Part shown: piece after piece, positions 5,203-64,000 of the stretch
Numbering within the stretch: position 1 is the first letter of the stretch
How the letters are laid out: each line of letters starts with the position of its first letter
Assembly: GCA_963734845.1 (NCBI GenBank)
Contig: CAVTIS010000012.1
Location: 67,641 to 131,640, forward strand
Direction of reading: 5' to 3'
Length of the DNA stretch: 64,000 nucleotides
DNA from: an uncultured delta proteobacterium
Lineage (GTDB): Bacteria > Desulfobacterota > Binatia > Binatales > Binataceae
Position numbers and translations under genes: made by a program
Notes under the pieces: generated by a model
What the model was told of the DNA's origin: nothing
Databases searched by the model: none
What the model saw: the letters and a program-made list of their open reading frames with translations, nothing else

Positions 5203-6447
5203 TCAGCGATGCCCGTTGCTGCCGCCGCCGCCGTTCATCTGACGGGTGGCCGGCCGCTCCTGGATACCGCGGTTGTAACGCGACGCGACCTTGCGCCACG
5301 CCGTCAAGGCGTTGTCCAGTTGGCACAGGACCTCCTTGTTCCAGCCGTCGCCGTGCTCATAGAAATCCTGCATCGCCTCGCGCGCGAAGAGATCGTTGTC
5401 ATTGAAATCGCGCAGCGCGAGCGGTTCGAACACGTTGTTGTATCGATACTCGGCGTCCTTCAGATCCGCCTCGTTGCGGCAATGCGCGACCAGGATTTCC
5501 CAGTACTCATGATGGGTCTCGTCGGTGGGAACGTACCATTCGTATTGCGCCCAACCCGGAATCGGCCAGTGCTCAACCAACAGCACCCCGGGCACGTACA
5601 TCGAGGTGCGCAGGTAGTAAGGCTTGGTGCCGCGCGCCTTCAGCCCGAGGAGCGGATTTTCGAGCACCATGTTCCAGGCCTGGGGCCGGTTGTACATCAT
5701 CATTACGCCCTTCGGACCGTCCTCTTCCTCGACCACGCGGACCGCCTCGTCCGAAACGGGCTGCGCGCCGAGCGGAAACAACACGTCGGCGCTCGCAATA
5801 ATCGTGTTGCCCATGTGCACGAGCCAGTGGCCCGGGTCGTAACCGTTTTCGACCGCCAGGCGCCAGTTGGAATTGCCGGTGCGATGAATCCCGCGGACGA
5901 AGACCTGCTGGTCGAGAATGTAGGCGACGGCGTTGGGGTCTTCGTCGGCGCCGATTCTAAGCGGCAGGTCGGATGACAGCGGTGGCACGGGTTGGTAGTC
6001 CTCGTCGCCGACGAAGACGAAGATCATGCCGTTGTGCTCTTCGACCGGGTAGGTGCGGATCCGCACTTTGCCGAGAATCGGATCGTCGGGCGACGCCACG
6101 ATGGTCCGCAGCACGCCGTCTTCGAGGCCGTAGCTGTAGCCGTGGTACCAGCAACTCATCAGCTCGTCGCTCAGACAGAGCGGCCGGCGCGACATCTTCA
6201 CGCCGCGATGCAGACAGCGGTCCTGCAGCGCGTAAGTCTTGCCCTTGGCGCGGCGGAGCGCGATCTCGTGGCCCGCGATCACTACGCCCTTGACGTCGTT
6301 GTCCTTGAGTTCGTGACTGAACAGCGCCGGGTACCAATGATTCTTGAAGCCGCACGCGGCCTCCAGGTATGGCGCCCATTGCCTGCTCGAGGATGCGCTC
6401 GGCGTGCCTGCACCGGCTGCCCTTCCCGTGGATTCGCCTGCGCCCAT
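5203..6447 (-). CDS. Rieske non-heme iron oxygenase, CarAa/OxoO-like
   Basis: WAPYLEA..GFKNHWYP; Rieske CLH...CWYH; NGYDPGHWLVH Fe site; FNDND. Confidence 0.85.
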   Translation of the reverse strand: MGAGESTGRAAGAGTPSASSSRQWAPYLEAACGFKNHWYPALFSHELKDNDVKGVVIAGHEIALRRAKGKTYALQDRCLHRGVKMSRRPLCLSDELMSCWYHGYSYGLEDGVLRTIVASPDDPILGKVRIRTYPVEEHNGMIFVFVGDEDYQPVPPLSSDLPLRIGADEDPNAVAYILDQQVFVRGIHRTGNSNWRLAVENGYDPGHWLVHMGNTIIASADVLFPLGAQPVSDEAVRVVEEEDGPKGVMMMYNRPQAWNMVLENPLLGLKARGTKPYYLRTSMYVPGVLLVEHWPIPGWAQYEWYVPTDETHHEYWEILVAHCRNEADLKDAEYRYNNVFEPLALRDFNDNDLFAREAMQDFYEHGDGWNKEVLCQLDNALTAWRKVASRYNRGIQERPATRQMNGGGGSNGHR

Positions 6448-8136: not shown

Positions 8137-9846
8137 TCAAGCGCCGGTTTGCGAAACCGTACGCATCACTTTGCCCGGCAAGCCGCCCTGGTATTGGTCG
8201 TGCGCGAAAAGCACTTCGCCGCCGACGATCGTGTATTCGATTCCCTCCGCGCGCTCGATTAGTCGCGGCTCGCCGCCGGGCAAATCGTTGACCCACTCGG
8301 GCTTGAGCGGTTTTATCGCGGCCGGATCGAAAATCACCAGGTCGGCATCCATCCCCGGCGCCAGCCGTCCCTTGGTGCGCAGCTCGAGAAAATCCGCGAG
8401 TTCAGAGGTTAGCCGCCGCACCGCGTCTTCGAGCGTCAGCACGCCGCGCCGATGCACCCATTCGTGCAGCAGGTACGAAGTCAGGCCGGCGTCGCAATGC
8501 TGCGCGACGTGAGCGCCCGCGTCGCTCAGCCCGATTAGCGTATTGGGCAGTTTGAGGATGCGGCTCACGACGTCGGGATTGACGTTAATCACCGAGAGCG
8601 TTACGCCCAGTTCCATCCGCTCGTCCAGCGCGAGGTCGAGCAGCGCATCGACCGGGTCCTTGCCGGTGGCGGCGGCCAGGTCGGCGACGCTCAGGTTGAG
8701 AAAACGGCGATTGCGCTCGTTCTCCACGCGCGCGATATGTACACGATCCCAGCGGCCGCGAAAAATCGCATTGCCACCGCCGCCTTTGATTTCGTTGCGG
8801 AATACGGCGCGGAAATCGGCCGAGCGTGCGAGCGCCATCTGCTCCTCGGCGCCGCGGTTGAAGATTCCCTTCCACGAATCGAGCGCGGCAAAGATGAACG
8901 GCTCGCGCATCGTGTAATACTGCTGAATCGGACGTGGCGTGACCTGCGGCAGTATCCTGAGCCCGTTTCGGAGCAGCGGCGCGAGACGCTCGACCGTACG
9001 CTGATGCGCGTCGGGCGGCGTGCCGGGCAGGTCGAGCAGCGCGAGCCAGGTCACCGGCCGCGTGCTCTCGCGCGCGAGCATCGTAAGCAGGTCGAAGCCG
9101 CCCTCGTTGGGCACGCTGGTCGAGCCGCGGTTGGGCAGAATCTCGATAACGCCGCGGTTAAGCTCGCGCATCGCGCGGCAGAGCGCGCGCAGCTCATCGT
9201 CGCTCGCCATCCGGCTCGCCAACGGACGGCCCTGAAATCCGATATGCTGGGGCGCGAGGCTCAACGAGAAGCCGGCGGCGCCGGCGCGGAGCGCCTCGCG
9301 ATACAGACGCGCCATCTCGGCCGTCTCGGCCTCGGTTGCGGCGCGCTCCGCTGCTTCCTCACCGATGACGTAGTAGCGCAGCGCCGAAAGCGGCACCAGG
9401 AAGCCGACGTTGAGCGCGACTCCGCGCCGCTCGATCGCCGCCATGTACTGCGGAAAGCTCTCCCAGTCCCACGTCACCCCGCGCATCAGCACGTCATGCG
9501 GCAGCGCCTCGACGTTGACTAGATCCCACGCCATCGTGGACTGCTGCCCGGGGCGGCAGGGCGCGACGCCCACCCCGCAGTTGCCCATCAGCAGCGTGGT
9601 GACGCCGTGCCACGACGAGCAGGTGAGCAGCGGGTCCCACGAAATCTGCGCGTCGTAATGCGTATGGATGTCGATGAAGCCGGGCGCGAGCACCGCGCCG
9701 CCGGCGTCGATTTCGCGCCGCGCCGTGCCGCCCGCCTCGCCGACCGCGGCTATTTTGCCGTCCTTCACCGCGAGCGCGCCGTGACGCACTGGCGCGCCGG
9801 TGCCGTCGCAGATGATGGCGTTGCGGATCAACAGGTCGTAGGCCAT
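8137..9846 (-). CDS. N-acyl-D-amino-acid deacylase family amidohydrolase
   Basis: PGFIDIHTHYD, GNCG, SDAGAH, GRLAPGMDADLVIFDP. Confidence 0.9.
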   Translation of the reverse strand: MAYDLLIRNAIICDGTGAPVRHGALAVKDGKIAAVGEAGGTARREIDAGGAVLAPGFIDIHTHYDAQISWDPLLTCSSWHGVTTLLMGNCGVGVAPCRPGQQSTMAWDLVNVEALPHDVLMRGVTWDWESFPQYMAAIERRGVALNVGFLVPLSALRYYVIGEEAAERAATEAETAEMARLYREALRAGAAGFSLSLAPQHIGFQGRPLASRMASDDELRALCRAMRELNRGVIEILPNRGSTSVPNEGGFDLLTMLARESTRPVTWLALLDLPGTPPDAHQRTVERLAPLLRNGLRILPQVTPRPIQQYYTMREPFIFAALDSWKGIFNRGAEEQMALARSADFRAVFRNEIKGGGGNAIFRGRWDRVHIARVENERNRRFLNLSVADLAAATGKDPVDALLDLALDERMELGVTLSVINVNPDVVSRILKLPNTLIGLSDAGAHVAQHCDAGLTSYLLHEWVHRRGVLTLEDAVRRLTSELADFLELRTKGRLAPGMDADLVIFDPAAIKPLKPEWVNDLPGGEPRLIERAEGIEYTIVGGEVLFAHDQYQGGLPGKVMRTVSQTGA

Positions 9847-61710: not shown

Positions 61711-61785
61711 GCCGATGTAGCTCAACGGTAGAGCAACTGATTTGTAATCAGTAGGTTGACGGTTCAAATCCGCCCATCGGCTCCA
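61711..61785 (+). tRNA. tRNA-Thr (anticodon TGT), CCA encoded
   Basis: Acceptor GCCGATG/CATCGGC; D arm GCTC/GAGC; ACTGA-TTTGTAA-TCAGT; TTCAAAT loop. Confidence 0.95.
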
Positions 61786-61849
61786 AAAAACTCTCTCGCA
61801 CAATGAGTTTGTGTGTCGAGCGCGATTAGCACTCTGAGTCTCGATTGAA

Positions 61850-62698
61850 TTGCAACCACGATGCAACCATCAACCGAGAGCAAAAATAGTGAGTTCAAAA
61901 AAAAGATCATTTGAGGCGCGCTTTGATATTGAGGTGCCGTTCGATGAGGCCAAGCGCCGCTTCGTCAATAGGGCGCACAACTACATTGACGACCTCTACT
62001 GGGAGCAACTTGATAGAAATGATCGCGCCATACTGGCATTCGAGGTTTTCAAAGTTCTTGGGAAGCGTCAGCCGAGATCCGGCTTGAACAGTCTCGCTGA
62101 GGAAATCGGACACGAGTTCTTGCAGACCTTGAAGGTGATTGAGGCGATGTACCGATCCAACGTATTCATGCACCGTTGGCAGGATAGGGTCGATAGCTTC
62201 GTCTCAGATATTTTGGAAGAGGCCGAAACCGACCTCGGCATCGCGTGGCGAGAAGGGGAGTTCATCAGGCGAGGAGCGGCGCTTCTAGACGAGGCGCTCG
62301 TGGACGGACCGCTGCACTGGTTACGACAAAAGGGCTATAAGGCGGTTCTCGATCCATTTGAAAAAGGTCTGCAAATTTTGCTCGAGGTCCACTTGCAAGA
62401 TCAGCCGCAGGGTCTATCCGATGTCGTGACGGACATGTACGAAGCTCTTGAGGCAATGGCGAAGATAGTCACCGGCCGTTCGGAGTTGACGCTTGACGCC
62501 AATCGTGAGGCGCTTGTCCAAAAGGTCGGGGCTTCCCAAGAGTACAGACGCATGCTCAAGGAGTACGTCGAATACGCGCATCGCTTTCGGCACGCACCTT
62601 CCGACAAGCGCCCGCGGCCGCAGCTTTCCTATCCGGAAGTAGAGTCATTCGTCTATCTGACGGGGGTCTTTCTCAGGCTAGCAATGTCTGCAAGTTAG
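61850..62698 (+). CDS. Hypothetical protein resembling AbiJ-related/HEPN-like abortive-infection proteins
   Basis: ILEEAETDLGIAWREGEF..LDE; YEALEAMAKIVTG; YAHRFRHA; EVESFVYLTGVFLR. Confidence 0.55.
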   Translation: MQPRCNHQPRAKIVSSKKRSFEARFDIEVPFDEAKRRFVNRAHNYIDDLYWEQLDRNDRAILAFEVFKVLGKRQPRSGLNSLAEEIGHEFLQTLKVIEAMYRSNVFMHRWQDRVDSFVSDILEEAETDLGIAWREGEFIRRGAALLDEALVDGPLHWLRQKGYKAVLDPFEKGLQILLEVHLQDQPQGLSDVVTDMYEALEAMAKIVTGRSELTLDANREALVQKVGASQEYRRMLKEYVEYAHRFRHAPSDKRPRPQLSYPEVESFVYLTGVFLRLAMSAS

Positions 62699-62852
62699 CC
62701 GTACTCCCAAGGCGGGCGAAGCGGACGAACGGATGCGGGCGCGCGATCTCGAAGGATAGAAAGGGAGCAGCGCGGCCCGCGGCCGGCCGAGTGCGGAACC
62801 CGTTTAGCAAGCGAGTACATGAGGGCGAATAGTCAAATGAAATATATCCTTT

Positions 62853-63374
62853 ATGTTGTGTCTCTTACGTTCGCGTTGCTCGAATACTCGGGGCTTATAT
62901 GGCGAGCAACGACCGAGCCCGTGCCCGTTGCGACTGGCGGCTATGCGCCTCAATAAATGCGGCGCTCTTAGTTCTCGCCGACCGGATCAAGCCGCCTCAC
63001 GATCATTGAAACTCTGCCGCATCGCCGCGCTTGTTGTCGCTGTTACACGGCTGGTCGTCGCCTCGCCGGCATGGGCGGGTCCGATATGCGCCGCCGAGGC
63101 AGACATTTCTCGTGCCGCCGCCGAGGCGCAACGGCGAGGGGTGCCACTTCGCACGGTCAAAAGCGTGATCGAGGCACAAACGCGCGCATCCGAAGGTGCG
63201 CGCAATTATGCGAAAGGCTCCATATCAATAGATTACTCATTTTCGACACTGAGTCCCGACGTACATGCTGATATTGCTTATCGATCCTGCTTGGAATACG
63301 AGGGCGACGATCAGTATCAGAACTACCTACGCACGTTGCCAATCATCGCGGCGGCTCTGCGTGCGAAATATTGA
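62853..63374 (+). CDS. Hypothetical secreted protein; start probably internal
   Basis: RIAALVVAVTRLVVASPAWA signal-like segment, two Cys in mature part. Confidence 0.5.
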   Translation: MLCLLRSRCSNTRGLYGEQRPSPCPLRLAAMRLNKCGALSSRRPDQAASRSLKLCRIAALVVAVTRLVVASPAWAGPICAAEADISRAAAEAQRRGVPLRTVKSVIEAQTRASEGARNYAKGSISIDYSFSTLSPDVHADIAYRSCLEYEGDDQYQNYLRTLPIIAAALRAKY

Positions 63375-63783
63375 GCGGTCCGCAAGCGGACAAAGAAACG
63401 GCGCGGCGCGCGACCGGGGGATATGGTCACGCCCGCGCCGTTGTGCCGAGGGGCGGCGGATAATCCACCGAAGTCAAGCGGACCTCTCTACTCGACCTCG
63501 CCGCTGCGCGCCGTTTGGAACCGGGGACAACGGCGCCCGGACCCTCAACGATTTTCAGGGAACAACCCGCGCCGGGCTTGGCTGGCTCAATAGCGGGGTG
63601 TTTTCAGCTTCGCCCCGCACACGACGTTGGTTAGGGAGCGCCGACGCCTAGGGTTCACGGTCCCATTTGTGCGTGCGCGAGTTGTTCCCATGCCTCGAAG
63701 ATGTACCGCGCCCCGCGGCGCCGGCCAAGTGAGGGGCCGCTTCTCAACCGTGCCGCGGGGAGCGGGTACGCGGTGCTTTTACC

Positions 63784-63999
63784 TCAGCGCCCGACGCCGG
63801 TTATCGTGCAGAGATGCGACGCGCGCAACAGCGCAACATCGATCCGGCACCAACAGCGGATCCCGACTCCGAGTGCGGCGAAGTTATCACCGTGGCGCGA
63901 GACGTCCACCGTCACGTCTCGTCTCATCCCGAGGGCGACCTGTCCGAAGTCGCCGACGTACGCCGTACTTTCCTGAGCCGGCGTGCCGCGACCCGCGTC
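63784..63999 (-). CDS. C-terminus of an HK97-family phage major capsid protein, 5' part outside window
   Basis: Manual translation: AYVGDFGQVALGMRRDVTVDVSRHGDNFAALGVGIRCWCRIDVALLRASHLCTITGVGR-stop (TGA 63786-63784). Confidence 0.7.
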   Translation of the reverse strand, partial: DAGRGTPAQESTAYVGDFGQVALGMRRDVTVDVSRHGDNFAALGVGIRCWCRIDVALLRASHLCTITGVGR

Positions 64000-64000
64000 G

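Follow-up and report, generated by a model that had tools for sequence, protein, structure and literature searches.

A 10.8-kb island at a tRNA-Thr gene of Candidatus Binataceae carries an HK97-family capsid gene and is probably a PICI-type phage satellite

A capsid gene end at the window edge

The window (the whole 64,000-nucleotide stretch of DNA analysed) ends in the 3′ part of an HK97-family major capsid gene, comprising 71 codons and a stop on the minus strand (63784–64000), identified by Pfam, PHROG, NCBIfam and PDB matches. The frame of 71 codons at 63784–63999 (minus strand) is open and reads DAGRGTPAQESTAYVGDFGQVALGMRRDVTVDVSRHGDNFAALGVGIRCWCRIDVALLRASHLCTITGVGR-stop, its stop codon lies at 63784–63786 behind the C-terminal residues ...YVGDFGQVALGMRRDVTVDVSRHGDNFAALGVGIRCWCRIDVALLRASHLCTITGVGR, and the remaining two minus-strand frames of the same interval are interrupted by stops. 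Taken alone, the 71-aa fragment matched PF05065 (Phage_capsid) with an e-value of 4.9e-7 and 29.9 bits, above the curated cut-off of 24.2 bits for this family, it aligned to profile positions 221–278 of 280, which is the C-terminus, and it also matched phrog_10 ‘major head protein’ (1.1e-6). The gene runs past the window edge to window-equivalent position 65091, and the full protein (P0001, 435 aa), taken from contig L001 (see below) and flagged as encoded by the 420,894-bp source contig of the window itself, matched PF05065 at 6e-29 (101.7 bits) and TIGR01554 major_cap_HK97 at 3e-33 (115.4 bits, residues 9–430), together with solved HK97-family capsid proteins, including PDB chains of HK97 gp5 at ~1e-9. 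As the TIGR01554 alignment begins at residue 9, whilst solved mature capsid chains begin at approximately residue 160, the first ~160 residues correspond to a delta/scaffolding-type domain. The fragment at the window edge is the end of an HK97-family major capsid gene, with matches well above chance. Exact scans of genome and metagenome contig collections with a 72-mer taken from this end of the gene returned no match.

A sequence-only reading of the window had placed a capsid-gene end on the minus strand at this edge and had proposed a search against PF05065 as the check, in which the fragment (29.9 bits against 24.2) and the full-length protein both score above the curated cut-off; the frame and stop of the C-terminal sequence it quoted are real, but the final two residues (GR) had been left off. 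It had also described about 400 bp without a convincing ORF, then convergent accessory genes and a tRNA-Thr, and all three are present: the interval without an ORF with a family match measures 409 bp (63375–63783), the two ORFs beyond it (61889–62698 and 62853–63374) are both on the plus strand, and a tRNA-Thr(tgt) lies at 61711–61785. Of the two accessory ORFs, that at 62853–63374 (plus strand) encodes 173 aa with a possible signal peptide, judged from its sequence, and that at 61889–62698 (plus strand) encodes 269 aa, has a lower GC content (0.54), and returned no Pfam, PHROG or NCBIfam match and only a weak PADLOC match.

Within the interval just 3′ of the capsid stop lies a conserved, structured non-coding block of ~150 nt (63540–63691, no strand assigned), recognised by comparison with contig L004 and by folding. 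The block shares ~80% identity with L004, although the capsid proteins of the two are only 47% identical, and it is better conserved against L004 than the adjoining coding DNA. A closing stem of 15 bp (63557–63571 with 63675–63689) surrounds internal hairpins in a multi-stem fold, in which the comparison of these two sequences gave 4–5 compensatory pairs, and folding z-scores were −1.9 and −2.7 on the two strands. Rfam held no family for the block, and a search with its 20-mer core returned two chance matches and no additional copies. Candidate roles are a packaging site, a terminator/3′UTR RNA or a regulatory site. Two other non-coding blocks, near-identical to each other, were observed 40–130 nt upstream of the small terminase gene (TerS) in contigs L002 (~6255–6375) and L003 (~8690–8810); these are ~25 and ~50 nt long and read CGGGGTAT(G)CGCTGGAAATGGCCCG and CTTCGCCRTTGGTTCGCCCTSATGGCCGAKGGTCAGRCATGATG, and they are candidates for a cos/pac (packaging) site or a late promoter. 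A scan for promoters and terminators gave matches at or below chance.

Integration site and gene content of the island

An exact-protein look-up of the 173-aa ORF retrieved L001, a 10,824-bp contig which differs from window 61756–64000 by one mismatch in 2245 overlapping bases, and window positions are given by adding 61755 to the L001 position. The sole difference is at window 61786 (A in the window, T in L001), which is the first base 3′ of the tRNA and the exact junction between repeat and element. The capsid gene end belongs to a mobile island of ~10.8 kb which abuts the tRNA-Thr(UGU) 3′ end in a Candidatus Binataceae genome. Seven housekeeping proteins of the window fall into 90%-identity clusters, and among the members listed each name that gives an organism reads ‘Candidatus Binataceae bacterium’ (phylum Binatota). 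The tRNA gene (61711–61785, plus strand; ARAGORN and L001 alignment) provides the attL core repeat in its 3′ part, which is exact from 61739, or carries one mismatch from 61733, and runs to 61785. L001 begins within this tRNA gene and closes with a 33-base copy of the tRNA that starts at the anticodon stem: 27 of these bases are exact (L001 10798–10824, identical to window 61739–61765), and the full 33 (L001 10792–10824) match at 32/33, or 97% identity. This second copy of the tRNA 3′ end sits ~110 bases past the integrase start at the far end of the island, where L001 ends within attR, which is therefore known in part. That the integrase would lie at the far end and that the tRNA 3′ end would be duplicated had both been anticipated from the window alone, and both exist, as a 407-aa tyrosine integrase 10.8 kb away with the tRNA-Thr 3′ copy beside it.

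A motif count located two TGCAACC repeats, 11 nt apart, inside the tRNA-proximal end of the island (61851–61868, plus strand), and a matching pair adjoins attR at L001 10673–10690. TGCAACC occurs five times in L001 against 1.0 expected, a count reached in 0/200 shuffles, and four of the five occurrences are the two terminal pairs. As the integrase carries an Arm-DNA-bind_3 domain, we read the pairs as candidate arm-type integrase sites (the pair in the window being that of the P′ arm), and their placement is the pattern expected for an arm-binding integrase.

Eight other assemblies carrying an identical GST gene provided the empty-site comparison. These sister genomes share 98.5–99.3% identity with the window flank (one at 96–97%), the similarity stops at 61785–61795, the 3′ end of the tRNA, and past the tRNA none of the eight showed any similarity to the element, which is absent in 8/8. 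This breakpoint, together with the absence from the sister genomes, indicates that the ~10.8-kb segment is a precise, strain-specific insertion, and its absence at such high flank identity indicates that it was gained recently. In most of the eight the tRNA is followed by a methyltransferase gene, a tRNA cluster and secE-nusG-rplKAJL-rpoB, and four (L044, L045, L047 and L049) have this methyltransferase-tRNA-cluster flank in common. Different insertions occupy the tRNA-Thr in L042 (around 9700; a cation ATPase and a sigma-70-like gene) and in L046 (around 9700; TetR, DUF1326 and PpoB2), and tRNA-Thr(UGU) is thus an integration hotspot in these Binataceae genomes. Reads for the window stretch came from one soil metagenome run, were thin, and contained no informative joints, and a circular form of the island itself was not observed.

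The element holds 13 ORFs, all intact, with the genes from integrase through capsid on one strand and a two-gene cargo on the opposite one, in the order integrase, 170-aa ORF, HTH_17 protein, Rep, ORFs of 102 and 146 aa, cargo pair, TerS, a protein which we refer to as X, and capsid; the 173- and 269-aa cargo ORFs then face the capsid gene and precede the tRNA. The integrase is a P4-type tyrosine integrase with Arm-DNA-bind_3, Phage_int_SAM_3 and Phage_integrase domains, and is followed by the 170-aa ORFan. The excisionase/regulator-like protein (97 aa) matched HTH_17 at 2e-11 and phrog_66 ‘excisionase and transcriptional regulator’, scored below the cut-off of TIGR01764, and did not match the Pfam AlpA family. 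The Rep initiator (397 aa) is lambda-O-like, matching HTH_36 (27.9 bits) and phrog_270/391 (replication initiation; PHROG ‘replication initiation O-like’), and its gene holds six 12-bp iterons, AATGTCCGGGGT, at L001 7776–7898 (window-equivalent 69531–69653), spaced 21–24 bp apart (~22 bp), a number reached in 0/200 shuffles. The iterons encode a repeated TPDI motif and, as in lambda O, place the origin within the coding sequence of the initiator. The ORFs of 102 and 146 aa after rep are ORFans, and TerS is a P27-family small terminase of 158 aa, matching PF05119 (1e-17, 64.8 bits), phrog_83 and TIGR01558 sm_term_P27 (53.2 bits, cut-off 45.6).

The cargo pair lies between the replication and packaging modules in opposite orientation (L001 4740–6353, window-equivalent 66495–68108). 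One member (168 aa) has a hydrophobic N-terminus, the other (324 aa) has a Cys-rich, zinc-ribbon-like N-terminal region and a C-terminal TIR-like/nucleoside 2-deoxyribosyltransferase-like domain, matching phrog_16139 (3e-41) and a PADLOC TIR effector (1.7e-7). The two genes are candidate anti-phage defence cargo.

Searches of the 13 ORFs with Pfam, PHROGs and NCBIfam detected no portal, prohead protease, large terminase (TerL), HNH, connector, tail or lysis gene, in accordance with the earlier expectation that no head-completion or tail genes would follow the capsid gene. As a positive control, the same searches detected portal, S78 protease, TerL and HNH in four distant relatives (L012, L013, L016 and L018, see below), so the absence of these families from the island is not a problem of sensitivity. 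The protease, portal, terminase, primase and integrase for which the adjoining DNA was to be searched are thus partly there: integrase, TerS and Rep are encoded beyond the window, and portal, protease and TerL are not.

These absences bear on whether the island could be a strict cf-PICI, building a complete head of its own and stealing tails alone. It does possess TerS and an HK97-type capsid protein that is full-length and includes a delta domain, as such an element would, however, portal, protease, TerL, HNH and head-tail adaptor/connector genes were not found, the largest other ORFs are the integrase, Rep and the TIR-like cargo, leaving no space for the missing genes, and a portal or TerL is too big for the small ORFans (X and those of 102, 146 and 170 aa). 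The small ORFans may be connectors. We consider a strict cf-PICI highly improbable, and the ‘capsid-forming satellite’ proposed from the window does not stand in this sense, with portal, protease, TerL, HNH and head-tail adaptors all absent. On gene content, the cf-PICI, P4-like and autonomous-phage readings were ruled out.

Relatives and the TerS-X-capsid module

The capsid lineage is rare: a word-indexed search of 5.8 billion proteins returned four proteins at E<1e-10, even with a profile, and the best match in the phage collection shared 27% identity. The closest relative (P0002, 71% identity) is encoded in another Binataceae genome (L003), on a 9.8-kb island bounded by a 33/34-nt tRNA-Arg repeat and laid out as in the window, with the tRNA beside the capsid end and the integrase at the far end. 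Its replicase differs, being a D5-type primase-helicase, and the integrase is only 30–36% identical. The L003 integrase is called as two ORFs (279 and 121 aa, L003 3155–4350), which reflects a pseudogene with a frameshift or else an error in the assembly. The next relative (P0003, 47% identity) lies on an 11,043-bp contig (JGI) with genes for HTH_17, a DUF3631 protein, TerS, X, capsid and integrase. As TerS, X and the capsid gene are kept together in islands with different integration and replication genes, they form a conserved module that is shuffled among them. The capsid and TerS genes have dN/dS values of 0.22–0.45, with synonymous sites near saturation, so that the reduced module recurs under purifying selection.

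Protein X (P0007, L001 3475–3930), encoded between TerS and the capsid gene, is an ORFan of 151 aa. HMMER, run exhaustively against 1.84 billion representative proteins, gave a family of 16 matches at E≤1e-3, the word-indexed protein search gave only four relatives, and an X-based scan of viral contigs found nothing. An AlphaFold model from a 12-sequence alignment (pLDDT 91.8, pTM 0.82) confidently predicts an all-alpha protein, built of four long helices and a pair of very short strands, for which no significant structural neighbour was found in PDB or BFVD, and dN/dS for the gene is 0.4–0.9, again with synonymous sites near saturation. X is a candidate assembly, size-determination or packaging-specificity factor, a role that would suit both its constant position, with TerS on one side and the capsid gene on the other, and its rapid evolution.

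A more distant capsid protein (P0004, 31% identity) comes from an element in which TerS accompanies the capsid gene and no recognisable portal or TerL was detected. This element was found integrated (L006), between 57-nt tRNA-Leu repeats at a distance of 10,378 bp, and also in circular form, on a contig (L007) whose unit measures exactly 10,378 bp. Since the assembler worked with a k-mer (141, as the k141 in the contig name shows) longer than the repeat, reads probably support the junction of the circle. In this element a 475-aa ORF of no known family (phrog_8610, unknown function) follows TerS.

Four further relatives (L012, L013, L016 and L018), on IMG/VR contigs and in one Planctomycetota MAG, encode capsid proteins of 30–35% identity together with TerL, S78 protease, portal, HNH, primase-helicase and integrase on contigs of less than ~10 kb, a layout which is cf-PICI-like. 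Since these relatives carry the full head set, the window lineage probably arose by reduction. Another contig (L039, 35–2304) holds a truncated X gene (112 aa) followed by a 74% identical homologue of the 269-aa accessory protein, with no capsid gene between them, and is a deleted or recombined relative.

Reduction raises the question of whether the island is a decaying remnant of a cf-PICI-like satellite or prophage, which would have lost portal, protease and TerL and would no longer be transferred in particles, though it might still be excisable. The portal, S78 protease and TerL kept by the 30–35% relatives, the truncated X without a capsid gene in L039 and the split integrase of L003 all fit such decay. 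They have to be set against the reduced TerS-X-capsid set retained by three elements with capsid proteins of only 47–71% identity, at dN/dS of 0.2–0.45, against the 13 intact ORFs with preserved att and arm repeats, and against the recent gain implied by the absence of the element from eight sister genomes at 98.5–99.3% flank identity. On balance we regard a decaying remnant as unlikely. The sequence-only reading had left the choice between a small capsid-encoding satellite and a truncated prophage; the former is supported, whilst the latter is disfavoured by the presence of both att ends (attR in part), intact ORFs, a recurrent architecture and eight sister genomes without the element. Broken genes, degraded att sites and a lack of conserved architecture, as in a defective prophage remnant, were not observed.

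A PICI-type reading and comparison with known satellites

We interpret the island as an integrative phage satellite, ~10.8 kb long and of the PICI type, with a capsid homologue like Ccm and that of PmCI172, and put the probability of this reading at roughly 0.7. SatelliteFinder defines PICIs by an integrase, a regulator, a primase-replicase, a capsid-morphogenesis gene and TerS, and cf-PICIs by the addition of portal, head-tail adaptor and connector, TerL, HNH and protease (PMC10085698). For each of the five PICI components the island carries a functional counterpart, that of the regulator being a candidate, and it lacks every component specific to cf-PICIs, an assignment that rests on its architecture and on Pfam/PHROG analogues of the component families. 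In particular, it combines a 407-aa integrase with tRNA-Thr repeats and eight empty sites, its own replicase with an iteron origin (the iterons lying inside rep), a small terminase (PF05119, TIGR01558), a 435-aa HK97-type protein which, by homology, would serve as the capsid-morphogenesis gene product, and no tail, lysis, portal or connector genes among the 13 ORFs searched. The regulator matches HTH_17 (2e-11), AlpA was not matched, and the genes from integrase to capsid lie on one strand; unidirectional transcription is described for Gram-negative PICIs (PMC6092414). The att and arm repeats, the exact breakpoint at the tRNA, the integrase, the Rep iterons, TerS, the capsid gene, the recurrence of the module and the distant capsid and TerS element found both integrated and circular count in favour of a PICI. 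Against it we count the great rarity of the lineage (four capsid relatives at E<1e-10), the regulator that matches HTH_17 and leaves the AlpA family unmatched, the iterons within rep, and the fast-evolving X without a known fold.

If the PICI reading is correct, an HK97-like helper phage (probably of cos/HNH type) would infect or be induced, upon which the island would excise through the integrase and HTH_17 protein, replicate from its own iteron origin, and then express TerS, X and the capsid protein. The island TerS would direct the helper TerL onto satellite DNA. The island capsid protein would co-assemble with that of the helper, as does SaPIbov5 Ccm in pentamers, or may alternatively replace it and form the whole shell on a helper portal. 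The resulting small capsids (about T=4) would hold 10.8 kb and exclude the helper genome, and, to judge by P4, a T=4-like head would suit the 9.8–11.0-kb size class of these elements. Removal of the delta domain would fall to the helper protease, and the portal, connectors, tail and lysis functions would likewise come from the helper.

Capsid interference could also be the end in itself. The island may be a defence island which is not packaged, its capsid homologue and TerS acting only as decoys that poison the assembly and packaging of HK97-like phages: Ccm blocks its helper 10^3- to 10^7-fold by capsid interference (PMC5052747), and the cargo here includes a TIR-like/nucleoside-deoxyribosyltransferase-like effector domain. 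We consider this quite improbable, as the island's own replicon with iterons and its int/xis pair are hard to reconcile with a decoy, the conserved sizes of the relatives (9.8, 10.4, 10.8 and 11.0 kb) fit a small capsid, and interference and self-packaging coincide in known cases.

A more speculative proposal, which we hold only tentatively and think rather less likely to be true than false, is that TerS-X-capsid islands constitute a ‘half capsid-forming’ family reduced from cf-PICI-like ancestors, which would build a delta-domain shell of their own on a stolen portal with a stolen protease, X being an adaptor or size determinant. If true, such islands would be intermediate between PICIs, which steal the whole head, and cf-PICIs, which steal only tails.

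As a PICI-type satellite the island would extend a group known mostly from Proteobacteria and Firmicutes to the uncultured soil phylum Binatota, for which our literature search found no paper on a link to phages or satellites. It would provide a compact natural case of a satellite retaining only the capsid protein, TerS and one unknown protein of the head module, which could help to tell the head functions that a satellite has to encode itself from those that it can take from elsewhere. The insertion also identifies tRNA-Thr(UGU) as an integration hotspot of variable content and points to an unseen HK97-like helper phage.

Amongst known satellites, P4 (a satellite of P2) is an element of ~11 kb which integrates at a tRNA gene, carries a P4-type integrase and a replicon of its own, and has small T=4 capsids. 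The island resembles it as an ~11-kb tRNA-integrated element with a P4-type integrase and its own replicon, but P4 uses the external scaffold Sid together with Psu/Delta and has neither a capsid homologue nor TerS, both of which the island has, and no island protein matched the P4 core families. The cf-PICIs, such as EcCIEDL933 (10.1101/2022.09.08.507074, PMC10085698), share the left arm of integrase, regulator and replicase, the HK97-type capsid and TerS, but carry a portal, protease, adaptor, connector, TerL and HNH, all of which the island lacks.

Lone capsid homologues are known from PICIs, namely SaPIbov5 Ccm, PmCI172 and EcCICFT073 c1499 (PMC5052747, PMC6092414). Ccm alters the size of the helper capsid (to T=4) by occupying pentamers (PMC8569155), and like the island capsid protein it is an HK97-fold homologue with a helical, delta-like N-terminus (PMC5052747, PMC8569155); SaPIbov5 and the island are also alike in having no portal, TerL or protease of their own. 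They differ in that SaPIbov5 uses the cos site of its helper and has no TerS, whilst the island encodes its own, in that Ccm has a shorter delta domain than its helper's, whilst that of the island capsid protein is long (~160 aa), and in the Gram-positive host and divergent transcription layout of SaPIbov5.

PmCI172, described with PmCI86 as a PICI of Pasteurella multocida by Fillol-Salom et al. 2018 (PMC6092414), is like the island small and integrase-bearing, with homologues of a major capsid protein and of terS, and is packaged in capsids of small size (about 38 nm) that bear helper tails (PMC6092414). The likeness is one of description, between elements of a Gammaproteobacterium and of a member of the Binatota. 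Described PICIs have their iterons 3′ of rep, whereas those of the island lie within it, a feature which, like the X gene, is undescribed for PmCI172. We read the island as a divergent new representative of the PICI type, not as a new kind of satellite.
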